From positions 1 to 17,992 of the forward strand of contig JBDHKN010000091.1 in assembly GCA_039586365.1 (NCBI GenBank): DNA of 17,992 nt, in the 5' to 3' direction. This document shows, piece after piece, positions 2,257 to 13,619 of the stretch. The translations under genes and the position numbers were made by a program. The stretch is from Gemmatimonadota bacterium (GTDB lineage: Bacteria > Gemmatimonadota > Gemmatimonadetes > Gemmatimonadales > GWC2-71-9). The notes below the pieces were generated by a model. It did no database searches. It was not told the origin of the DNA and worked only from the letters and a program-made list of their open reading frames with translations. Position 1 is the stretch's first letter. The number at the start of each line of letters is the position of its first letter.

Positions 2257-2564
2257 AGTGTGGAAGATGTGCCAGGATCATTGGTTCCCTTGCACTCTAT
2301 TGCTGAATTACCCGCAATGTACCGGTTCGATCCTCTGGGTCCTCCCCTGTCCTGGGATCCGGCGTTGTAGCAGGCGGAGTCAGTTGACTCAGCCTCAGTC
2401 AGGAGGCCAGCAGAGTGTCTCGCCGGTCGGATCGTAGGGCTGGAAGCTGCGGAGGCCTGGACGGGGCCGAGACGTATCGACGAAAGACCGTGGCAGGTTG
2501 GCAGACCGGGTCCACCCCGCCGGCCAGAAAGTGTGGTTGTAGCTGCCATTTCGGCAGAGATGCT

Positions 2565-2581
2565 TGGGCACGCCGGTTGCT
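2565..2581 (+). promoter_or_regulatory. Sigma54 (RpoN) -24/-12 promoter for the hsp20 cluster
   Basis: TGGGCACGCCGGTTGCT matches the consensus YTGGCACG-N4-TTGCW. GG (2567-2568) and GC (2579-2580) are exactly 10 nt apart, and the site is about 77 nt upstream of the hsp20 ATG. Confidence 0.7.
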
Positions 2582-2657
2582 CCCGGGCATTCGCGTCGGC
2601 GCAATCTCCGGCTGCCGCAGACAAACGACCGTGAACTTGAGAGGAGGGAACCTAGCA

Positions 2658-3119
2658 ATGATTGTCACACGCATTCGTCCGCTGCAGAGACCGTGGTGGT
2701 CGGCGTGGGGCGACTTCGACCGGGTGCGCCACGACATGGCACGCCTGGCGGAAGCCATGTCGAACGGTGCGTTTCCGGAAGCGGGCACGCGGATGTTCCC
2801 GTTGGTGAATGTCACCCAGGACAGCGACAATTTCTACGTGCGGGCCGAACTCCCGGGAGTCCGAGCAAATGAGCTGGAAGTCTCTGCCGTGGGCAGCAAG
2901 CTCTGCATCTCCGGCAGTCGTGCACTGCCCGAAGAGGAGGGAGGGGTGAGTTACCACCGCAGGGAAAGAGAGGGAGGCAACTTCAGTCGCAGTATCGAGC
3001 TGCCCTCCCCGTTTGATCGAGATCGGGTGGAAGCGCAGTATGAGAATGGTCTTCTCACAGTCACGCTGCCGCTCGCCGCGGAAACCAAGCCGCGGCAGAT
3101 CCCGGTGAGCACCGGGTGA
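2658..3119 (+). CDS. hsp20: Hsp20/alpha-crystallin small heat-shock protein (153 aa)
   Basis: FPLVNVTQDSDNFYVRAELPGV...YHRREREGGNFSRSIELP...A.YENGLLTVTLP and a C-terminal IxV motif (RQIPV). The strong SD GAGGAGG at 2641-2647 supports ATG 2658 rather than the track start at 2415. Confidence 0.95.
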   Translation: MIVTRIRPLQRPWWSAWGDFDRVRHDMARLAEAMSNGAFPEAGTRMFPLVNVTQDSDNFYVRAELPGVRANELEVSAVGSKLCISGSRALPEEEGGVSYHRREREGGNFSRSIELPSPFDRDRVEAQYENGLLTVTLPLAAETKPRQIPVSTG

Positions 3120-3159
3120 ACCTGATTGGTGCATAGGCCACTGAGAGGAGAATAGAGCC

Positions 3160-3570
3160 ATGGCGAAAGAGAAGACCCACGAAGTGCAGACGGTGGAGCG
3201 CGAGGAATCGTCCACCGCTGTAGAGCAAACCCGGCCAGGTCCGGTCTACACTCCGGCTGTAGACATTTTCGAGGAGGGGGAACGGATCACCGTTCTCGCC
3301 GACATGCCCGGCGTGAGCAAGGACGACTTGCGCATCGATCTGCATGACAACGTTCTCACGCTGACTGGTGACCCAGCAGGTCTGGAAGGTGAAGCGGAGG
3401 CAGAGGTGTTCCGGGAGTATTACTCGGGCCGATTCTACCGCCAATTCACCCTGTCGGACAAGATCGACCAAGGGAAGATCGAGGCGAAGCTGGTAGACGG
3501 CGTGTTGCGACTCGTGCTGCCGAAGGCGGAGGCCAGCAAGCCGCGACAGATTAGGATCAAGGCTGGATGA
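3160..3570 (+). CDS. hsp20: Second Hsp20/alpha-crystallin small heat-shock protein (136 aa)
   Basis: YTPAVDIFE...ADMPGV...FYRQFTLSDKIDQGKIEAKLVDGVLRLVLPK and a C-terminal IxI motif (RQIRI). SD GAGGAG at 3145-3150. Confidence 0.95.
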   Translation: MAKEKTHEVQTVEREESSTAVEQTRPGPVYTPAVDIFEEGERITVLADMPGVSKDDLRIDLHDNVLTLTGDPAGLEGEAEAEVFREYYSGRFYRQFTLSDKIDQGKIEAKLVDGVLRLVLPKAEASKPRQIRIKAG

Positions 3571-3576
3571 CCGTAG

Positions 3577-3602
3577 CGACGCGCCAGCTCACTGGCGCGT
3601 CG
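3577..3602 (+). terminator. Perfect 11-bp GC-rich hairpin after the hsp20 pair (leaky terminator or stabiliser)
   Basis: CGACGCGCCAG (3577-3587), loop CTCA, CTGGCGCGTCG (3592-3602), 6 nt after the stop codon. The U-tract is weak. Confidence 0.6.
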
Positions 3603-3637
3603 GTCTGCTCAAAACCCCAACAGGCCATCGGTGAACG

Positions 3638-4330
3638 ATGACAGGCGGGGAATACTACCGAATCCTGGGCGTCCCTCCGTCGGCCAGCAAGCGAGCGATT
3701 AGGGACGCGTACCTGAGTCTGGTCAAGCGACTGCATCCTGATCGGGTCGGACCCGCGGGCACAGCGCGGTTTCAAGATGTGGCGGTGGCTTACGAGACGC
3801 TGTCGGATCCCGCCAAGCGTCGGCTGTACGATCTGCGCTTCCCCCCTAGGGTACCAACGCGTACCGCACGCAGTGAACCGGCGTCAGTAGGGCCACAGCC
3901 TGAGCCTCTGGTGCCGGAGCCTATCGAGGTGGTGGGAGAACCCGAGACGGTAAGCCCGTCTCTCGAAGAGGTCTTACAGCGACTCCAAAGGACCCGCACT
4001 GGAATGCGGGTCCCGAAGTGGGAACACCAGGAAGGGTTCGACATCGGTGTCATATTGACGCGGCTCGAGGCATCCAGAGGTGTGGTCTTGCCAATGGCCA
4101 TTCCGACCCTGCGGGAATGCCCCCGGTGTGGGGGACTGGGAGGGACGGTTCTCCCCTGCCACGCCTGCGGCGGTCTCCGCATGGTGGAGCAGCGGGGAAT
4201 CGTGAGGGTGCACATTCCACCAAGCGTGAGGGACGGGGACGTCGTCGAAGTCTCCCTGGAGCGGATCGGTGTCACGAACATGTTCCTGCGGATTCATCTA
4301 TCCGTAAGGAGCGACGAGCCGGTTTGGTGA
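3638..4330 (+). CDS. DnaJ-domain co-chaperone-like protein with a short Cys-rich zinc finger
   Basis: J-domain YYRILGV...HPD...FQDVAVAYETLSDPAKRRLYD, then CPRCGGLG and CHACGGLR, then a DnaJ-C-like segment VHIPPSVRDG. Confidence 0.9.
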   Translation: MTGGEYYRILGVPPSASKRAIRDAYLSLVKRLHPDRVGPAGTARFQDVAVAYETLSDPAKRRLYDLRFPPRVPTRTARSEPASVGPQPEPLVPEPIEVVGEPETVSPSLEEVLQRLQRTRTGMRVPKWEHQEGFDIGVILTRLEASRGVVLPMAIPTLRECPRCGGLGGTVLPCHACGGLRMVEQRGIVRVHIPPSVRDGDVVEVSLERIGVTNMFLRIHLSVRSDEPVW

Positions 4331-4345
4331 CAACGGTCTCCGCTG

Positions 4346-6391
4346 TTAGAACACCTCGATCCCGAGCCGCACGGTCCGGCCCGGTTGGGGCATGCCGCAT
4401 TGGTCGAACACCGCGACGTCCGCTACGTTGTCGAGCGACAGCGTCGTCCGGATGTCACCCCACAGGCCCTGTCCCAACCGCCAGTCACGCCGCAGGCCCA
4501 CGTCGATCCGGGTCTTACCGTCCAGTGCGACGTCGCTGTCCAGTTCCGGATGCACGCAGTACTGATCGCCGGTGTGCTTGAGTCCTGCGATGCCTCTGAA
4601 TCCGAGTGGGAGCGGTGCACGCAGGTCGAGGCCGGCTGTGAACTCCGGCATGTGCTCGGGCTGGATTGGCCCGCTGGTGGCCGCGGGATCCTCGACGGTG
4701 ACGTCCTGCAGCATGATATCGCCTTGGATCTCCGTGCCAGCGATGGAACCGCCCACCAATAGCTCTATCCCCATGCTGTTGATCATGTCGCGGTTGATGC
4801 GACGGTAGTTGCCCTCTGGCGTGGAGGTACGCACCACCGCGTCACTGAGTTCGTGGCGGAACAACGCGGCCTGAACTTCGATGCCGGAACGTTTGAACGT
4901 GGCACCCAGCTCAGCAGCGTTGAGCCGCTCGGGGTCGAGGTCTGGATTGGGCTCGAACCGGCCCAGCGCACCCGAATAGAGTTCACGCAACGCGGGGAAA
5001 CGGGCGCGGGTGCTCACTGAGGCGTGGAGCTGGAGGTCGTCACTCAGCGCTAGAGTACTCACTCCTACCCGTCCACCCCAGGCCCACAGCCGACCTAACG
5101 GCGGCTTGCCTCCAGACTCAGGAGTGTCAGCGCCGTCCAGCGCAACGCCCACCGTGAATTCAGTAGTCTTGGGCAAGTGCCACGCGGTCTCAGAGGCTAG
5201 GCTCCACAACCGCTGGCGATACTCGTTGCGCTCCACCTCGTCGAGGATCTCCGTGTGGTTGACATCGGCATAGCTAAGAGCCGCCCGAAACTGGCCGTGG
5301 GAAGTAAGGGTGTGTTCACCCAACAGTCGCAGCGTCATGTTCCGGTCGTCACCCGACTCCGTCTCCACTACCTCATCGTAGTCCAGGGATCCGAACGCCT
5401 CTATATCCTGCCGGCCGCCGTTGAACCCCAAGCTCGCCTCCAGGTCACCCATTCCCCAGGGGGTGCTGCGCTGCCCCGTCCCGGCCGAAAGCGCCGCAAC
5501 AGCCTGCCACTCATTGGGGTAGCGCCACAGGCGCGGCTCCTGAACGTGCAACTCCGGGGGTACCCCCCGCTTGGCCCGGAATCCGGAGGCAGAGAGCGAG
5601 ATCCAGCTGCCTCGGTAGCTTTCCCACCGTATGGCACCGAACCCGTTGACCTCCTCCACATCCGAGTTGGTGCGGAGGTCGCCCTCACTGCTGGGATCGA
5701 CGACATCGGCGGGCAGGGCCAACCCGTCACGGGAACGGAAGCCGGCTCCGGCCCGAAACACCAGATGTCCGCTACCCAGGTCCGACATTTGGACCCCGGA
5801 GGCGCCAACGGCCCGGGAACCGACGTTGTCCACGCCTACGGAGGCCCTGAGTTCGTCCCGATCCTGGCGAAGTCCGCCTCTCCCCAGGTCCACCTCCACC
5901 ACCCCACCCAACACGTTGGGACCGCTCAGTACGGACGGCAGGCCCCGCACCAACGTGAGGTCTCGGACTCCCATCAATGGTATCACCGCCGGATCAGTGC
6001 GGTGGTCCCAGGCCAGGGTCAGAGGCACCCCGTCCAGCAGCACCGCCACCTGTCGTGACTCCGAGCCACGGACCGAAATCTCGGCCATGCCCCTGGAGTT
6101 CTGGCGCACCAACACGAAGGGAAGCTTCCTGAGCGCGTCCTCGAACGTAGCGACCGGCTCGATGGCAAGGGACTCGGGGAATGCGATGATTCCAGTGGCG
6201 CCGCCGGCGACGGTGGTCCGTCTCACTGCCGTCACGACAAGGCCGCCGATGGTGAAAAGCGTGTCGGGCCTAATGCTGTCGGGGCGCTCCTGTGCTACCA
6301 GTGAATCAGATTGAGACGTGGTGAGCGTCACGAGTATGAGCGTTGTATGCATCAAAGCACGCGCCGGCAGGCGCTGCTTTTTGGTTCTCAT
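4346..6391 (-). CDS. TonB-dependent receptor (plug plus beta-barrel), substrate unknown
   Basis: LVVTA, plug motifs ISVRG and VAVLLDGVPL, VRGLPSVLSGPNVLGGVV, barrel motifs RFPALRELY and NPDLDPE, and a C-terminal GRTVRLGIEVF ending in Phe. SD GGAGGAG supports ATG at 6391 rather than the track start at 6409. Confidence 0.93.
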   Translation of the reverse strand: MRTKKQRLPARALMHTTLILVTLTTSQSDSLVAQERPDSIRPDTLFTIGGLVVTAVRRTTVAGGATGIIAFPESLAIEPVATFEDALRKLPFVLVRQNSRGMAEISVRGSESRQVAVLLDGVPLTLAWDHRTDPAVIPLMGVRDLTLVRGLPSVLSGPNVLGGVVEVDLGRGGLRQDRDELRASVGVDNVGSRAVGASGVQMSDLGSGHLVFRAGAGFRSRDGLALPADVVDPSSEGDLRTNSDVEEVNGFGAIRWESYRGSWISLSASGFRAKRGVPPELHVQEPRLWRYPNEWQAVAALSAGTGQRSTPWGMGDLEASLGFNGGRQDIEAFGSLDYDEVVETESGDDRNMTLRLLGEHTLTSHGQFRAALSYADVNHTEILDEVERNEYRQRLWSLASETAWHLPKTTEFTVGVALDGADTPESGGKPPLGRLWAWGGRVGVSTLALSDDLQLHASVSTRARFPALRELYSGALGRFEPNPDLDPERLNAAELGATFKRSGIEVQAALFRHELSDAVVRTSTPEGNYRRINRDMINSMGIELLVGGSIAGTEIQGDIMLQDVTVEDPAATSGPIQPEHMPEFTAGLDLRAPLPLGFRGIAGLKHTGDQYCVHPELDSDVALDGKTRIDVGLRRDWRLGQGLWGDIRTTLSLDNVADVAVFDQCGMPQPGRTVRLGIEVF

Positions 6392-6742
6392 CGGCGACTC
6401 CTCCAACACATGTACATGTCCATCCCCCGCTAAACCTACCTAATTCTGCAAGGAACACACCGTGGGGCAGGCACACATGGACGACTTCGAGTAGACGCGC
6501 GGGGTAGGTGGAATGGGAGGGATCTCGCCTGGGCACGTGTTGCCGAGTGCGGTAGCCCAACGCGATTGTCGTACGAGGTGGACGTTTGGCGTCCTCGAAT
6601 CTGGACGAAGTTCCGGAGACGAAACTGCTGCGACTGTGAGAGGCGCCGCTGCGACTTGACCTCGATGTCGCGCCGATAGCTCATCTCGGCGTGCTTGGCC
6701 TGTGTGGGGGTTATCGTCTGTGTTCACCAGCGGCCCTGCAGG

Positions 6743-9700
6743 TTAGGAATGCAATGGTGGCCTCCGGGCCCCAAGACGGAGGAAGAGGGTCGGAACGACT
6801 ACCATGTTGAGCGCGGTGGACGTCAACAGCCCGCCCAACACGACGATTGCCATGGGTGCCTCGATCTCCTTGCCCGGCTCTCCGCCACCCAGGGCCAGAG
6901 GCAGCAGCGCCAAGGCGGCCGTGAGGGCGGTCATCAGAATCGGATTGAGTCGCTGCAGGGAGCCATGATACACAGCCTGGTATAGCGGTAGGCCCTGGTC
7001 AATGAGTCGGTTGTAGTTGCTCACGAGCAGGATGCCGTTGCGGACGGCTATCCCGAATAGCGTGACGAACCCCACGAGGGTGGCAACGTTCAGCGTGTTG
7101 TGCGAAGCCAGGATAGCAAATACCCCACCTATTAGTGCTAGTGGCAGATTCACCATGATGAGTAGTGCGGAACGCATACTGCCGAATTCCTGGAACAGGA
7201 TGAGGAAGATCACGACGACCGACAAGCCGGACAGCAGAGTGATCATTCGAGCGGCGGCAAAGCCGCTCTCGAACTGGCCGCCGAACTCGATGTAGTAGCC
7301 CTCGTCGAGCTCCACGGTCTGGGCGATGCGATCGCGCATTTGTGCGACGGCACCGGCAACATCTCCTCCAGTCACGTTGGCTTGCACGACCAGCTTGCGC
7401 TGAACGGCCTCCCTGCTGATGGTGTTTGGTCCCCTGTCTTCCACGATGTCGGCCAGCAGCACCAGAGGGACTTTCGCTCCCACCGGGGTGTCCACCAGAG
7501 CCGAGCGTATCTGTTCCGTAGTGCTCCGGTGCCCAGCCTCAAACCTCACGATCAGATCGAACATGTTCTGGCCTTCGAGAACTTGCGACACGACTGCTCC
7601 GTAGAAAGCGACGTCGATGGCCTCCGCCAGTTTACCGGCAGTCACCCCGTATCTAGCCATGGCTTGCCGGTCGGCGCGCACGCGTAGCTGCGGGACGTCG
7701 GCCTGTTGTTCCACTGACAGATCCACTACACCCGGGATATCTTCGACCGCGGTCCGGATTGCTTCGCCAATGCGTCTCAGTTCGTACAGGTCGCTACCGA
7801 ACAGTTTCACCGCGATGGCGGCCCTGGTTCCGGACAACATGTGATCGATGCGATGCCCGATTGGTTGGCCGAACGTGATGCTCATGCCGGGCACCGTAGT
7901 CACGAGGCGGCGCAACTCGGCGGTGATGTCTCGCTGCCTGCCGTATGAGAGATCCAACATCACTTCGATTTCTGCGCCGTTCACACCCTGCCCGTGCTCG
8001 TCCAGTTCTCCCCGCCCCGTGCGGCGGGCGGTGGACAACACCGCTGGGTGAGTCAGCAACCGGCGCTCGACGAGGCTCCCCAGGAGGTCTGACTCCTCGA
8101 TATTAGTACCGGGCACCGTCACCGCCGTGAGCGTTAATGCACCCTCCTGAAACTCAGGCAGGAATCCCCGACCCAGCAACGGCAGCACGAGCAGCGTAGC
8201 CACGACTGCGCCGGCCGCGGCGGCCCCGACGGTGAGTGGGCGCTCCAGCCAGCGGTCCAGGATACGTGAATACCACGTCTTGAGCCAGGTCACGAGCCAG
8301 CTTTCGCCCCCGCGTTTCACGAATGGAGCATTCGGGAGGAGATAGAACGAGAGGACCGGTGTCACCGTGACCGCGACGAGCAGTGAAGCGAGGATGCTGA
8401 CCACGTAGGCAAACCCCAATGGTCGGAACATCCTTCCCTCGACGCCGGACAGAAAGAACAGCGGCACGAAGACAATTGTGATCACCAAAGTCGCGTTGAC
8501 GATCGGGCCCATCACTTCTCTCGTAGCGTCGAACACCACGGTTGCCACTGGCTGTCTCTGCTCCGCTGCCGTAGCTGCGTTTTGCTTGAATTGCTGGAAG
8601 ATGTTTTCGACCGCTATGATCGCGTCGTCTACGAGCGCACCGACGGCGATGGCCATGCCTCCCAGCGTCATCGTGTTGATCGTGATGCCGAACAAGCGCA
8701 TGATCACGATAGCCGTCAATATCGACAGAGGGATAGCGAGCACGGAGATAGCCGTGGTCCGGATGTTCCACAGAAACAGGAACAGGATGACGATGACCAA
8801 GATGGCCCCATCACGCAGGGCCTCGATGACGTTATCGACGGCGAGCGAAATGAAGGTGGATTGGCGGAAGATGGCACGATTGATCGTCATGCCGTCCGGC
8901 AACCCTGCCTCGATACGGTCCAGTTCGGCGTCAATCCGTCTCGTAAGCTCGAGCGTGTTTGCGTCGGGCTGTTTCTGGATCGTGAGAACCACCGCCGGCT
9001 CTGCGTTGACCGACGCCGTTCCAAACCGGGGCTGTGGGCCGATCACGACGTCCGCAACGTCGTGCAACAGAATGGGTGTGCCATCCCGCACCACCACAAC
9101 CGTCTGTTCGATGTCCTCCAGCTGCCGCACGCGGCCAAGACCGCGGATGAGTATCTCCTGTCCGGCCGCCTGGTAGACGCCACCCGCAGCGATGGCGTTC
9201 GCGTCCCGTGCCGCCGCGAGCACCGCGTCGAGCGGGATTTCGAATGCCCGCAGCTGCTCGGGATGGACGAGGATTTGATACTGCTTCACTGCTCCGCCGT
9301 TGGTCACGACCTGAGCCACACCCGGGACCGCTAGGAGGCGCTTCCGCACGACCCAATCGGCGGTGGCTCTTACTTCGAGTGGTGCGTGGATGTCGCTGGC
9401 CAACGCGATCATCATGATCTCGCCCATGATCGAAGTGATGGGGGCAAGAGTGGGTTGGCTCGCGCCCGCAGGTAGCTGGAGAGCGACCAACTGCAGCTTT
9501 TCACTCACTACTTGACGGGCGCGAAAGATGTCCTGGCCCCAATCGAATTCCACCCATACTATGCTGAAGCCCTGAGTGGTCGACGAACGAACTCGTCGCA
9601 CACCGGTGGCTCCGTTCACCGCGGTCTCGATCGGAAATGTCACCAGCGTCTCGACCTCTTCGGTCGCCATGCCATGTGCGTCGGTGAGGATGGTGACGGT

Positions 9701-9835
9701 TGGCGCCGTGAGGTCGGGGAAGACGTCTACCGGCATCCTCGTGGCGGCATAGCCGCCGCCGAACAGTAACAGCACCGCAAAGAACAACGTGATGATCCGG
9801 TTCCTCAGGGACCACTCCAGCAGGAAGTTCAACAT
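6743..9835 (-). CDS. czcA: CusA/CzcA-family heavy-metal efflux RND permease (1030 aa)
   Basis: MPVDVFPDLTAPTV, EEVETLVTFPIE, NTMTLGGMAIAVGALVDDAII, GFLPEFQEG, ARRTGRGELDEH, RLNPILMTA, GGLLTSTALNMVVVP. Family-level call; metal specificity cannot be determined from sequence alone. Confidence 0.95.
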   Translation of the reverse strand: MLNFLLEWSLRNRIITLFFAVLLLFGGGYAATRMPVDVFPDLTAPTVTILTDAHGMATEEVETLVTFPIETAVNGATGVRRVRSSTTQGFSIVWVEFDWGQDIFRARQVVSEKLQLVALQLPAGASQPTLAPITSIMGEIMMIALASDIHAPLEVRATADWVVRKRLLAVPGVAQVVTNGGAVKQYQILVHPEQLRAFEIPLDAVLAAARDANAIAAGGVYQAAGQEILIRGLGRVRQLEDIEQTVVVVRDGTPILLHDVADVVIGPQPRFGTASVNAEPAVVLTIQKQPDANTLELTRRIDAELDRIEAGLPDGMTINRAIFRQSTFISLAVDNVIEALRDGAILVIVILFLFLWNIRTTAISVLAIPLSILTAIVIMRLFGITINTMTLGGMAIAVGALVDDAIIAVENIFQQFKQNAATAAEQRQPVATVVFDATREVMGPIVNATLVITIVFVPLFFLSGVEGRMFRPLGFAYVVSILASLLVAVTVTPVLSFYLLPNAPFVKRGGESWLVTWLKTWYSRILDRWLERPLTVGAAAAGAVVATLLVLPLLGRGFLPEFQEGALTLTAVTVPGTNIEESDLLGSLVERRLLTHPAVLSTARRTGRGELDEHGQGVNGAEIEVMLDLSYGRQRDITAELRRLVTTVPGMSITFGQPIGHRIDHMLSGTRAAIAVKLFGSDLYELRRIGEAIRTAVEDIPGVVDLSVEQQADVPQLRVRADRQAMARYGVTAGKLAEAIDVAFYGAVVSQVLEGQNMFDLIVRFEAGHRSTTEQIRSALVDTPVGAKVPLVLLADIVEDRGPNTISREAVQRKLVVQANVTGGDVAGAVAQMRDRIAQTVELDEGYYIEFGGQFESGFAAARMITLLSGLSVVVIFLILFQEFGSMRSALLIMVNLPLALIGGVFAILASHNTLNVATLVGFVTLFGIAVRNGILLVSNYNRLIDQGLPLYQAVYHGSLQRLNPILMTALTAALALLPLALGGGEPGKEIEAPMAIVVLGGLLTSTALNMVVVPTLFLRLGARRPPLHS

Positions 9836-9847
9836 CAGCCGTGTCCC

Positions 9848-11341
9848 CTAGTGCGCGTGCGCACGGTCGGAGAGTTCGGCCGTGTTCAGCGAGGCGAGTT
9901 TCACCTGATAGGCCCCCAGCGTCACGACCCGTTCACCCGAGGCCACCCCGGTTCTCACTATCGTCCATACCCCGTCTGACGGTCCCAGCGTCAGGATGCG
10001 TCGCTGGAACGTCTCGCCGCCAATCTGGACGTATGCCACGTTTAGCCCGTCTTCTTCCCGAACCGCTGATGTCGGTACAGCGGTTCCCGTTTCCGGTTCG
10101 CCTAGCAACAGCAGACCCTCGGCGAGCATACCGATTCTCAGGCGCTGGTCCTTGTTGTCCACCTCGAGCACTATTGGGAGGGTCCTCCTCGCTCGGTCGA
10201 TCACCTTCCCGACCGACACGACACGCGCCGACCGGTAGACCTCGTCGCTCCCTTCTACCTTGAAAGTGGCTCCCGCTGCCAGTGACAGATCCACCGCATG
10301 GTGAGCGGCGACGTCCATCCGTAGCCAAACCGTGCGAGGGTCGACGATGGAATAGAGCAGCTGACCGGCGGTGACGCGTTGACCCATCACCAGTTCCCGC
10401 CGGTCGACCACCCCTGTGATCGGAGCACGGAGCGACAGTTCGAAGCCCGATCCCGGCGTTGCACCCATGGAGGCGAGTGCGGCACGAGCTACCGCGAGAT
10501 CACGTCTGGCGTCTTCCAGACGCCTGGCTGGAATGGCCTCGATCGAGTAGAGCCGTTCCGCGCGAGCGACTTCCAGAGCCAAGCGTTGCTCCCGGGCTAT
10601 CTGAAGAGCGTAGGCATCGTCGCCGCTCACGGGAGCCAGTACCGCGAGCGTATCGCCCTTGCGGACCCAGTCTCCCGGGATGGGTACAGCCCCGTTGTCC
10701 TCGGGCAAGACCAGCCCGGCGACGGGAGCGGTGACCTCGACCAGTCCACCGACTTGCGGGATGATTTCACCGGTGGAACCAATGGAACGGGGCACCGCTT
10801 TCGCCGCGGCGGCCTCGGTGGCGAATGCTATCGCCCACTGTTGTTCTTTGAGGAATGTGATGCCGGCTGGAGGCTCGTCCTCTGGGCGCGGCCGGTCATC
10901 GTGTGACTCGCGGACCACCACGGGGCCAACGACAACCTCAGTCGACAGCCGCGGGCTGTTCAGGTCCATCACCAGCTCGTACTCGCCTGCCACGGAGAAC
11001 GAAGGAGCCGGCGCAAAGACCCCTGGCCGGGCCGGCTCAGCCACGCTCTCCACGAACTCGCCGCTATCCGGTACCATGAACCGCAGCGTCAGCACACCTT
11101 CGGTCACGGGTTGATGGGTCCGAAGATCGGTGAGATGGACGACCCACGGCTCGGTTGCTTCGCCCGCGAAGAGCTCCGGATGCTCGAAGAAGAGCTCGAC
11201 GGAGTCGGTCCATATCGTCACTGATTCGTGGTGGTGTTGGTCGGCTGGGTCGGCCGTGAAGTCGCCACCGCTTCCGCATGCGTGAGCCGAGCAGGTCAGC
11301 ACTGATATCAGGAAAGACCTAATGCGGGTCTGGTAGATCAT
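9848..11341 (-). CDS. czcB: RND periplasmic adaptor (CzcB-like), probable lipoprotein with an extra N-terminal domain
   Basis: Lipobox-like AHA-C, GDWVRKGDTL, LRAPITGVV, LRIGM, VPTSAV, GERVVTLGAYQVKLA, with His-rich ends (HHHE, HAH). It overlaps the tolC stop by ATGA at 11338-11341. Confidence 0.92.
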   Translation of the reverse strand: MIYQTRIRSFLISVLTCSAHACGSGGDFTADPADQHHHESVTIWTDSVELFFEHPELFAGEATEPWVVHLTDLRTHQPVTEGVLTLRFMVPDSGEFVESVAEPARPGVFAPAPSFSVAGEYELVMDLNSPRLSTEVVVGPVVVRESHDDRPRPEDEPPAGITFLKEQQWAIAFATEAAAAKAVPRSIGSTGEIIPQVGGLVEVTAPVAGLVLPEDNGAVPIPGDWVRKGDTLAVLAPVSGDDAYALQIAREQRLALEVARAERLYSIEAIPARRLEDARRDLAVARAALASMGATPGSGFELSLRAPITGVVDRRELVMGQRVTAGQLLYSIVDPRTVWLRMDVAAHHAVDLSLAAGATFKVEGSDEVYRSARVVSVGKVIDRARRTLPIVLEVDNKDQRLRIGMLAEGLLLLGEPETGTAVPTSAVREEDGLNVAYVQIGGETFQRRILTLGPSDGVWTIVRTGVASGERVVTLGAYQVKLASLNTAELSDRAHAH

Positions 11342-12618
11342 ATGTCCCCCTCTCCGGCCGGCTGTGAGTTGCTGAATCCTCCAGCCGCGCGTTCGAGGTC
11401 GTAATAAGCGATCCAGAGTTCTGCAATCACGTGCGCTCTGGTGTCTTGAGCGTCCCGAAAGGCTTCGGCGGCATCCAGCAACTCCAGCAGGGTCATCTCT
11501 CCCTCGTCGTAGCTTGCCAGTGCTACTTCCAGTAGGTCATCTGAACCAGCCAACAGGGTGTCGGTAACCAGCCGGTCTATTCGCCTGAGAGAGGTGTATG
11601 CATCCAGCGCGGTATTCAAGTCGTTCTCAACCGCCCGGCGTGTCAGGAGCAGACGTCTCTCGGCGGCGTCCAGCCTGGCGGTGGCCGCGTCGGACTCTCC
11701 ACCCTGTCGATCCAGTATTGGGAGAGGCAGTTCCAGGCCTAGGACTCCGCCGTCGAACCCACCGGAAATTCGCTTGTATCCGGCGACAACCGTGGGATTG
11801 GGTAGAGCCCCCCAACGGGCAAGGCTGACGGCGGCGCTCGCAGCCTCAACGCTGAGATCCGCGGCTAACAGCTCAGGTCGCTGTGCCAACGCACTGGCGA
11901 CGAGATCAGAATCGCTCACGGCAGGAGGGATGCCCGCCAAAGGCGACATCGGTGCCGCCAGGAGGCCGATTGAATCCGGCATCAGTAGCATTGTCAGTCG
12001 GCGCCGAGCCTGAGCCAACTCAATGGCTGCGTGGCGCAGTTGGCTCTCGTAGCGGGCCCGCTCGACCCGAATCCGTCTCAGCTCGTAACCCGATATGTCG
12101 CCCTCGGCAAACCGAGCCGTGCCGTTCTGCTCCGCTCGGCGAAACACCCCCGCGACCTGATGCACCACTTGGAACGTGACCTCGTCTCGACCGGCTGCAA
12201 CGAACGCCTGCTTCACAGCGAAGTTGAGGGCGCTGCTATCGGCCCGCGACATCGCACTAGCTGCGTCGGCTGCTCTGGCCGTTGCAGCCCTCCGCTGCCC
12301 GTACCTCCACGGCCAGTCTATCTGTTGACTCAAGGTCACGTAGCGCTCGGTCTCGCTGAGGTCCGAGCCGTTTGAAACCGACTCGTGCTGCAGCGCGGCT
12401 ACTGGATTGGGGTAAGCCTTCGCCTGCCGGGCCAATCCCGCTGCTTCGGCTGCCGTAGCCCGAGATATCTGCAGTTCCAGGTTGTTGTCTCCGAAGAGCT
12501 GTAGTGCTTGCTCCAGGGTCACTCGCGTGACCCTCTCCTGGGCCACTGCAGTGCTGCAGGGCAGGAGAACAAGGCTGGCCAGGATCACCCCGTATGCGTG
12601 TCGCTTCCTGAGTTGCAC
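11338..12618 (-). CDS. czcC: TolC/CzcC-family outer-membrane efflux protein
   Basis: Signal peptide, VTLEQAL, NPEL-type repeats (NNLEL, QRPEL), YPNP/LPNP, LELPLPILDR, YDEGEMTLLELLDA. GTG start with SD GGGAGG (12624-12629). Confidence 0.92.
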   Translation of the reverse strand: MQLRKRHAYGVILASLVLLPCSTAVAQERVTRVTLEQALQLFGDNNLELQISRATAAEAAGLARQAKAYPNPVAALQHESVSNGSDLSETERYVTLSQQIDWPWRYGQRRAATARAADAASAMSRADSSALNFAVKQAFVAAGRDEVTFQVVHQVAGVFRRAEQNGTARFAEGDISGYELRRIRVERARYESQLRHAAIELAQARRRLTMLLMPDSIGLLAAPMSPLAGIPPAVSDSDLVASALAQRPELLAADLSVEAASAAVSLARWGALPNPTVVAGYKRISGGFDGGVLGLELPLPILDRQGGESDAATARLDAAERRLLLTRRAVENDLNTALDAYTSLRRIDRLVTDTLLAGSDDLLEVALASYDEGEMTLLELLDAAEAFRDAQDTRAHVIAELWIAYYDLERAAGGFSNSQPAGEGDI

Positions 12619-12722
12619 GCCGACCTCCCAATTGACGAAATCCGATCGGCCGCGTAGCGGTCCGATCTAGCGTACTTGAACTGTGGGTGTTGGAGCTGCT
12701 CCGGCTGGTCCGGAGCTGTCTG
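12616..12722 (-). promoter_or_regulatory. Structured spacer between the leader ORF and tolC (candidate attenuator)
   Basis: Hairpin 1 is GCTCCGG-ACCAG-CCGGAGC (12698-12716). It is followed by a C-rich, G-poor tract and hairpin 2, GATCGG-A-CCGC-TAC-GCGG-CCGATC (12644-12667). The 3' arm of hairpin 2 can alternatively pair with GGTCGGCGTG over the SD end and start codon. Confidence 0.5.
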
Positions 12723-13064
12723 TCAGGCGTGCGACGTGGGGGGGGCTCGCGTCCGGATACGAGAAAGTGGGTCTCGGCTTCCAGGGCGCATCTCGGAGTG
12801 TGCCACCGGTCGTAGCAGGCGCGACGCTGAGCCGTTGGTAGCAACTACTTCTGCACTCTCGGCCCCGGCAAGCTCTGCCTGCGGGTTCTTGTCGCGATCG
12901 TCTTGTTCGACAACCGGCGCCCTGCAATCGCAGTGACTGGCCTCAACGTGTGCCACCGTGCAGTCGTGGTGCGGATGAGGATGCAGCCGTACGGCTGACG
13001 AGAAGAACGACAGGAAGCCGCCCAGCATCAGCCCCAATGCGGCATTCGACCGGATGCGTAACAT
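12723..13064 (-). CDS. 113-aa His/Cys-rich leader protein with C-terminal RAPP motif (DUF2946/CruR/CzcI-like candidate arrest peptide)
   Basis: Basic then hydrophobic N-terminus MLRIRSNAALGLMLGGFLSFFSSAV, then HPHPHHDC...H...HCDC, ending RIRTRAPPTSHA*. It lies directly upstream of czcCBA. The start at ATG 13064 was chosen from the promoter geometry. Confidence 0.75.
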   Translation of the reverse strand: MLRIRSNAALGLMLGGFLSFFSSAVRLHPHPHHDCTVAHVEASHCDCRAPVVEQDDRDKNPQAELAGAESAEVVATNGSASRLLRPVAHSEMRPGSRDPLSRIRTRAPPTSHA

Positions 13065-13070
13065 GGTCGG

Positions 13071-13099
13071 ATATTCGAGGAATTCAAGCTGGGTGTCAA
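13071..13099 (-). promoter_or_regulatory. Sigma70-type promoter for the leader ORF-czcCBA unit, probably leaderless
   Basis: Perfect -35 TTGACA (13099-13094), 17-nt spacer, -10-like GAATAT (13076-13071) retaining the -11A and -7T, then 6 nt and the ATG. No SD is present. Confidence 0.6.
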
Positions 13100-13189
13100 G
13101 CTGCAATCGCATCACGAACGGCAGGATGATGCCGCATCCCTGGTGGCGGGAGAGGTTGAGGAGTATGACCTAGTTGCAGCTCGTGTGTG

Positions 13190-13619
13190 AGCCTTCGGAC
13201 CAGCAGCACGTCTTCGCCGCCGACTTTCTGCGCCTTCCAAATGCAGCGCTGCCGGTGCAGTCGCAGCCAACCAGCGGCAAACACCAAGAGAACGAGGGTG
13301 GAGCCGAGGATCCAAAGGACTGCCAGAGATCCCTCGACGGCCGGAAGGAACACCCGTGATCCCGAGTGCGCAGCGGCACCACGGTACCCATCTCATAGAG
13401 GAACTCGACAGGGAGGCCGAGGCCTCCGCCGAGGGCCTCCGGCTCGCCTGCAGGGACCAGCCGAGGCAGGAACGGTGTGACGCCAACCGCGGCCAGCGCT
13501 CCGAACCAGGCCCAGCGCGTGGGCCTTCCCAGTGACCTGAGCGCCCGATCGAGAAAGTGGGCTGCCCCGGCGACGAGTAGGGCCAGTACCACGGAGTAGA
13601 TCATCACCGGCAGGGTCAC
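13190..13619 (-). pseudogene. BlaR1/MecR1-like M56 peptidase remnant (frameshifted, 3' truncated)
   Basis: Coupled to blaI by a GTGA overlap. N-terminus MIYSVVLALLVAGAA...LGRPTRWAW. The M56-like membrane segment LWILGSTLVLLVFAAGWLRLHRQR...VGGEDVLL continues only in another frame (ORF 13096..13353). No HExxH zinc motif follows. Confidence 0.8.

Follow-up and report, generated by a model that had tools for sequence, protein, structure and literature searches.

The gene at 12723..13064 (minus strand) of the window, the whole 17,992-nt stretch of DNA analysed here, encodes a 113-amino acid (aa) leader peptide that heads the operon of a heavy-metal RND pump. The leader is a real and conserved gene with a coherent mechanistic picture. 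It represents no new kind of system; judging by its sequence, it is likely to be a further candidate for a class of metal-sensing leader peptides that has already been catalogued. The preferred reading, with a probability of about 0.5, is that the leader works like CutF, that is, metal would prolong ribosome arrest at the C-terminal RAPP motif, and translation of the pump would go on. The gene itself, its conservation, its position in the operon, the class motifs of the pump and the family-level complementarity statistics are directly supported.

Anatomy and coding status of the leader

The features on which the original prediction was built, namely the 113-aa ORF, the His/Cys cluster, the RAPP codons and the 104-nt gap between the leader stop and the GTG start (12618) of the outer-membrane factor gene, were all re-read exactly as described. 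The N-terminus resembles a signal peptide by hydropathy (residues 1-24; 12993..13064, minus strand), with a basic n-region and a hydrophobic helix at residues 6-23 (hydropathy peak 1.95); SSA precedes residue 25. The His/Cys cluster (residues 28-47; 12924..12983, minus strand), with His at positions 28, 30, 32, 33, 39 and 44 and Cys at 35, 45 and 47, is followed by a 58-residue linker from Cys47 to Arg106 (12750..12923, minus strand), which includes the EQDDR and RDP motifs, and by the RAPP motif (residues 106-109; 12738..12749, minus strand; CGA GCC CCC CCC), four codons before the TGA stop. Arrest at this motif is known from other RAPP peptides (PMC10951233, PMC12992588). An AlphaFold2 model of the leader contains the N-terminal helix alone, with the remainder disordered (pTM 0.24).

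The dN/dS ratio of the leader is 0.30 in comparison with locus L079 (84% identical leader) and 0.35 in comparison with locus L001 (54%; TolC 71% identical to that of the window), against 0.97-1.36 for the other two frames in the same comparisons. Codons 1-60 are under the strongest constraint (0.16 and 0.24) and those of the linker under the weakest (0.55 and 0.75 over codons 61-93); the linker is poorly kept in sequence but similar in length across the family. By this pattern of substitution, the leader ORF is a real, translated gene.

The family core of the cluster, H33/H39/H44/(H or C)47, is essentially His-only. The columns of H44 and H47 are conserved at >=90% in the family alignment (A1), and the His columns are the sole conserved positions apart from Pro and Arg; the invariance of RAPP in this alignment comes partly from selection of the sequences, and the non-circular features are the signal, the His columns and the spacing between the cluster and RAPP (mostly 52-62 residues). 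The Cys triad is restricted to the sub-lineage of the window, and two loci from the same genus (L085 and L087) have a His-only or nearly His-only cluster. A His-rich cluster is thus a feature of the family, and Cys or CxC as candidate ligands a feature of the closest relatives only. In 11 of the 24 leaders (L003-L005, L009-L011, L034, L039-L041 and L045), a second R[AGS]PP motif lies 7-10 residues before the last one, a place that is occupied by RDPL in the window leader; arrest at two points, or contacts with the tunnel, could result from such tandem motifs.

In the entire 5.44-Mb genome, 6 of the ORFs with one of the 40 X[AG]PP motifs near a stop are also signal-like, and two of these six end in RAPP. 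So low a count, like the dN/dS values, points to more than a chance ORF. The only other RAPP leader of this genome (G000:C75, about 21341-21009, minus strand; 111 aa) carries a CXXC motif and is followed by genes whose products, identified by eye, are a porin-like protein, a binding protein like ZnuA and a permease; they probably form a metal uptake operon. Because this second leader heads a probable uptake operon, the cell may hold leaders of both signs. Loci similar to the second leader are found at L076 and L097.

Promoter, pump and conservation of the cassette

The leader appears to have a promoter of its own. The predicted -35 hexamer, TTGACA (13094..13099, minus strand), is identical in the window, L079 and L001, and the predicted -10 hexamer, GAATAT (13071..13076, minus strand), which matches the consensus in 3 of 6 positions, lies 17 nt after it and 6 nt before the ATG; the entire TTGACA-17 nt-GAATAT arrangement is common to the three loci, and the DNA farther upstream differs. 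With the leader start codons picked by hydropathy before the count, a -35/-10 pair precedes the ATG in 16 of the 24 leaders compared with 1.8% of random ATGs, and a -10-like hexamer is present in 19 of the 24 compared with 19% at random ATGs; none of the 24 has a Shine-Dalgarno (SD) sequence before the ATG. Because the promoter pair abuts the ATG and there is no SD, the operon transcript is likely to start as a leaderless mRNA at 13064; a literature search for leaderless mRNA in Gemmatimonadota gave nothing. This promoter was identified by comparison of loci, not by a consensus scan, which listed neither the GAATAT box nor any promoter or intrinsic terminator in the leader-tolC gap. A longer reading of the leader (129-130 aa, starting at 13115/13112, as in P0017) was rejected because the predicted promoter would fall inside it.

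The pump genes follow on the same (minus) strand: an outer-membrane efflux protein of the TolC/CzcC/CusC type (11338..12618; 426 aa; PF02321, E 1e-32), a periplasmic adaptor (RND MFP; 9848..11341; 497 aa; TIGR01730 above the cut-off) and a heavy-metal RND transporter (6743..9835; 1030 aa; TIGR00914, 753 bits with the cut-off at 701). The closest solved structures to the transporter are ZneA and CusA. Its motifs, read by eye, are AVG-X3-DDA-X3-VEN in TM4, HRIDH and HGQGVN; set against the TM4 motif AIG-X3-DD(A/S)-X3-(V/M)EN and the HRLDH-type site from table rows of PMC7060636, they mark the pump as HME5/NieA-like rather than CzcA. The HME5 (NieA/NrsA) group has been tied to nickel and, in cyanobacteria, to copper (PMC7060636). 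The label 'czcCBA-type exporter' in the original prediction is therefore loosely right, in that the operon is a heavy-metal RND operon, and does not extend to CzcA proper. Farther downstream, 333 nt after the RND gene, there is a gene for a TonB-dependent receptor (4346-6409, minus strand; best match BtuB-like, below the cut-off), and a riboswitch search around it found none; two Hsp20 genes and a DnaJ-domain gene (2415-4330, plus strand) are convergent with it.

Upstream of the leader, no two-component, MerR or ArsR gene is present beside the pump, as had been stated, but this needs a qualification: a gene for a BlaI/MecI/CopY-family repressor (PF03965; 13616-14062, minus strand) ends 551 nt upstream of the leader. 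Between the two lies an M56/BlaR1-like gene (13096-13619, minus strand), which is split over two frames and stops before the protease part, and so appears by eye to be frameshifted and truncated; intact paralogues are found on C5 and C69. Control of the pump by BlaI was considered and rejected because blaI is not conserved (it flanks 1 of 54 loci, that of the window), the DNA above the -35 hexamer differs in L001 and L079, and the M56 partner looks broken. Given that blaI and M56 are not conserved beside the pump and that the leader has its own promoter, the leader cassette probably landed in the M56 gene. In L001, CopC and DUF4198 genes are found beside the leader.

A TolC query gave matches at 63 places in 58 of the 401 genomes of the phylum, and 50 of these places were inspected (the other 13 all belong to genera g89-g91). 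An ORF with a signal, a His-rich segment and R(A/P)PP next to the stop, 60-230 nt before tolC, is present at 23 of the 50 places, in 21 of the 27 genera, which bears out the expectation that the RAPP leader is conserved upstream of homologous pumps, at the head of a heavy-metal RND operon. Two places in a distant family (L042 and L043) have a His-rich upstream ORF that ends in SLTDLSPP instead of RAPP, possibly another arrest motif. The leader is absent from the remaining 25 places, all in genera g89, g90, g91 and g98. An adaptor gene follows in 24 of 24 leader loci (L001 included) and in 14 of the 25 loci that lack the leader, so that the pump can exist without it. In one of the leader-lacking genera, g89, a conserved, GC-rich, non-coding element is located about 150 nt upstream of tolC (L015, L016, L019-L023, L025, L030 and L031); these loci have no adaptor gene in the flank, and the element has no Rfam match. 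At three leader-lacking loci (L013, L029 and L047), a cation-diffusion-facilitator gene, CzcD-like by eye, lies directly before tolC.

With a profile built from alignment A1, the family search (33 of the 401 genomes) yielded 18 new loci, 15 of them before an outer-membrane efflux gene, and three weak matches that head TonB-receptor-like or porin-like genes; among the profile loci, L083 duplicates L001. A protein search with the same profile gave 87 matches, all unnamed or hypothetical, one of them with PF11162. In L079 (positions 1-2258), the promoter, the 84%-identical leader and both intergenic hairpins stand ahead of an unrelated outer-membrane efflux gene, the product of which is only 28% identical to that of the window over 185 residues, and the similarity between the two loci stops just past hairpin 2. 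The same unit in front of an unrelated outer-membrane factor suggests that promoter, leader and hairpins form a portable regulatory cassette.

mRNA pairing and mode of regulation

In SecM, the stall exposes a downstream initiation site. At most of the leader loci, the last codons of the leader, from RAPP onwards to the stop, show complementarity to the SD/start region of tolC, with two hairpins enclosed. In the window (all on the minus strand), the leader strand at 12726..12732, which would be covered by a ribosome stalled at RAPP, is predicted to pair with 12621-12615 in the tolC start region (pair probability 0.39-0.94 at 37 C, varying with the folded length); the SD of tolC, GGGAGG (12629-12624), and the GTG start together span 12616..12629. 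The enclosed elements are a 7-bp hairpin right after the leader stop (12698..12716), with a compensatory pair change in L001, a second hairpin (12644..12667), the stem of which is kept in L001 and L079, and, between the two, a strand (12669..12675) able to pair with the start codon of tolC in place of the leader strand.

The cognate duplexes of RAPP-stop and tolC-start segments have a mean energy of -18.6 kcal/mol compared with -16.5 +/- 0.55 when the partners are permuted, a value reached in 4 of 20000 permutations, with four starts set by hand; only 6 of the 24 cognate duplexes rank among the best three in their row. No cognate advantage was seen with two control segments. The advantage of the RAPP-stop segment was found again in 21 further loci, a set that includes one duplicate and skips two RSPP loci (13 of 20000 permutations); because related genomes are not independent, these permutation figures are not strict probabilities. 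When the footprint is blocked that a stalled ribosome would occupy if its P site held the first Pro (following the geometry in PMC10951233), the cost of opening the initiation region drops by >2 kcal/mol in 12 of 24 loci, compared with 1 of 23 for a footprint placed 11 codons earlier; over nine settings, a drop of >1 kcal/mol is seen in 14-19 of 24 and 2-6 of 23 loci, respectively. When the upstream RNA is left out as well, taking away the strand under the ribosome lowers the SD-to-start opening cost by >2 kcal/mol in 18 of 24 loci; 11 of 15 further efflux loci agree. In 15 of 24 loci, sequestration of the start by the native codons exceeds that by more than 80% of the 25 synonymous recodings, and the Pro codons of RAPP are CCY in 33 of 48 cases compared with 156 of 383 in tolC.

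For the window locus itself, the predicted gain on stalling ranges from -0.3 to 4.2 kcal/mol depending on the footprint and the folded length, with one setting negative, and is small because the intergenic strand at 12669..12675 takes over the start codon; the native codons stand at only the 16th percentile of synonymous recodings. Release of the tolC initiation site by the stall is therefore best viewed as a prediction at the level of the family, uncertain for the copy in the window. An Rfam search of the window and of 19 loci had no matches; the intergenic region and the tested leader-lacking loci are thus not accounted for by any known riboswitch. An exported-type, translated leader together with such mRNA pairing is in keeping with stall-dependent control of the RND operon, as originally predicted.

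From these data and from characterized systems, we infer promoter use, export, arrest, metal binding and the sign of regulation as follows. Transcription would start at the leader's own promoter and give a leaderless mRNA, as the conserved motifs suggest; the leader would be translated, as dN/dS indicates, and presumably exported co-translationally. By analogy with ApdA, ApdP and CruR, the ribosome would be arrested with Pro108 in the P site; the distance of 58-78 residues between the cluster and Arg should then place the cluster beyond the tunnel and the membrane, which together span an estimated ~47 residues (Ozturk 2023, PMC9973294). In the absence of metal, pulling by Sec would end the arrest and the ribosome would depart, upon which the RAPP-to-stop strand is predicted, from the family-wide statistics, to re-pair with the SD and start of tolC. 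Nickel, cobalt or zinc (or copper, in the Cys-bearing sub-lineage) would lengthen the arrest, and the pump would be made, a step suggested by the class of the pump and the precedent of CutF.

The stall could instead act on transcription, with the ribosome shielding a C-rich Rho-loading site and RNA polymerase reading into tolC for as long as metal prolongs the arrest. This is unlikely, notwithstanding that all 24 loci have more C than G around RAPP (35 vs 19 for the window), that there is a 104-nt gap with a hairpin directly past the stop that could pause the polymerase, that the translational switch is predicted to be weak in the window locus, and that CruR acts through Rho (PMC9426467). Pro-rich coding yields an excess of C over G by itself, the intergenic region is mostly structured and has no intrinsic terminator, and a translational switch would lead one to expect the locus-specific complementarity that is seen with the start region of tolC.

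Less likely still, the leader might monitor secretion in the manner of SecM or ApdP, or couple pump synthesis to membrane-bound ribosomes, with the His cluster of secondary importance and the metal response being transcriptional or absent. A signal, a long linker and RAPP are indeed the anatomy of a Sec monitor (PMC10951233), and the protein encoded first after the leader is a Sec substrate as well, but the genes downstream are for metal transport rather than sec genes, the His columns are the sole conserved non-Pro/Arg positions, and dN/dS is lowest (0.16-0.24) over codons 1-60.

The architecture alone leaves the sign of the metal effect unfixed because weaker profile relatives are found in front of TonB-dependent receptors and of an uptake operon of the porin/ABC type. 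If metal-driven folding pulled on the chain and so relieved the arrest as in CruR, the operon would be on when the cell is metal-poor, and the RND system would not serve detoxification. CruR has this sign together with a true RAPP, CutF being stalled on PPP, and a TonB-dependent receptor gene lies behind the RND gene on the same strand, and profile relatives head uptake genes; such a sign is nevertheless improbable in the window, where the transporter scores above the TIGR00914 heavy-metal efflux cut-off and has the HME5 signature linked to Ni/Cu resistance, and an exporter repressed by its own substrate is unexpected. A secreted, His-rich metal-buffering peptide without a regulatory role and with an incidental RAPP, for which the signal-like start, the His-rich mature part and the disordered model could be taken, is hardly credible given the RAPP-like end and first operon position in independent profile matches, the family-wide pairing statistics and the codon bias.

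A fuller version of the preferred, CutF-like reading is more tentative, although still quite possible: a portable cassette of leaderless promoter, leader and hairpins, in which the His cluster would sense periplasmic Ni, Co or Zn and the metal would strengthen a true RAPP arrest and so turn on an RND exporter, with a sign opposite to that of CruR; a CXXC-type RAPP leader at an uptake operon would give the same cell both signs, and a near-identical cassette would have moved before an unrelated outer-membrane factor.

Comparison with known leader peptides

The motif of the leader is shared with ApdA/ApdP and SecM, in which a RAP/P arrest motif lies in an exported nascent chain (PMC10951233); unlike the window leader, those peptides, as described there, precede Sec/YidC genes and lack a metal cluster. 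The position of the leader is shared with CzcI and NieI of Cupriavidus, in that the gene of a small exported His/Cys protein comes first in czcCBA, and nieI heads an HME5-type nieIC-cep-nieBA operon (PMC7060636). In contrast to the window leader, CzcI is described as being without a C-terminal proline motif (Ozturk 2023, PMC9973294), and NCBIfam and Pfam scans gave no match that links the window leader to CzcI or NieI; the suggested CzcI models came to nothing, as no NCBIfam or Pfam family of that name is among the matches of 23 family members.

Leaders of this kind are already catalogued among RAPP and RGPP uORFs. The source data (Fig. 4B) of an EMBO J 2025 survey (PMC12992588) contain 530 RAPP vs 380 AAPP uORFs before 'TolC family protein' (5.5-fold), 620 RAPP uORFs before RND adaptors and 50 before CusA/CzcA; among 29 of these rows, many are His-rich. 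One row, MSR21050.1 (111 aa, before TolC), has GxPSHHH, HHGHG-VxLVxQxDR and RPPP..PRAPP as in the family of the window leader, to which, from these motifs identified by eye, it apparently belongs. Close relatives of the window leader may also be listed in the data of PMC12992588 and Ozturk 2023. The terms TolC and efflux do not occur in the main text of PMC12992588, and no description of the promoter or mRNA pairing of TolC-associated uORFs was found in the parts of that source covered here.

The efflux-associated, His-based leaders, which are the majority, are known as catalogue entries; in the non-subscription literature searched, no experiment on a RAPP leader in front of an RND pump was found, and the experimentally tested metal leaders are the copper-sensing CruR and CutF only. 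The present family is a compact test case, with a conserved promoter, a fixed spacer, a mutable anti-SD pairing, clusters both with and without Cys in a single genus, and leader-lacking lineages for contrast. It could show whether metal can tighten rather than release RAPP arrest, and could carry the mechanism beyond copper.

CruR (Bp2923) of Bordetella pertussis has CXXC, RAPP and a spacer of 45 residues as its defining features, and export-regulating uORFs were anticipated in the same work (PMC9426467); its arrest has been demonstrated by toeprint (PMC12992588). The window leader resembles it in the export-like signal, the metal cluster, RAPP 3-4 residues from the end, first position in the operon, a long intergenic region and the C>G bubble. 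It differs in its target, an exporter and not a TonB importer, so that metal should act with the opposite sign. On three features, the leader falls outside DUF2946 proper. First, there is no PF11162 match: the proposed HMM comparison of the window leader (P0001) gave none at E<=5, Pfam and NCBIfam scans assigned it to no family, and the leader locus is not among the PF11162 matches in its own genome; of 23 family members, 3 match the model weakly (the best with E 0.0034), a single match of the profile, P0049, scores above the curated cut-off, and an Atlas feature match of 0.94 connects the window leader to a cluster named DUF2946-containing. Second, the window leader has no CXXC, only C35 and C45-x-C47, and the cluster is free of Cys in most relatives. 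Third, the spacer is 58 residues compared with 45 +/- 2 under the CruR rule.

In contrast, the reading that the leader would work like CutF stands. In Rhodobacter capsulatus, Cu-induced stalling on CutF opens an SD stem-loop (PMC9973294 = bioRxiv 2022.11.11.516240), as confirmed in bioRxiv 2025.02.05.636593, and outer-membrane efflux protein genes (CusC/CzcC/SilC) are the commonest neighbours of CutF-like leaders, His-only clusters included (PMC9973294). The 'inverted' logic that an exporter target was said to need is accordingly not new, CutF already turning on a detoxifying gene by Cu-induced stalling. Like CutF, the window leader is short (113 aa, <150), has, by hydropathy, an N-terminus that resembles a Sec signal (SPase I type in the CutF rules) and a candidate metal-ligand cluster, comes first in its operon with a same-strand gene 104 nt downstream (<1000), and carries a PP motif (108-109) among its last 15 residues; in both, the stall is predicted to melt an SD-hiding structure and to turn a detoxifying gene on, although the prediction is weak for the window locus. 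Unlike CutF, it has RAPP instead of PPP, a His-based core instead of CxxxC and a spacer of 58 instead of 45 residues; the anti-SD strand consists of the leader's own last codons, ~100 nt away with two hairpins enclosed; and the target is an RND pump rather than a copper oxidase.
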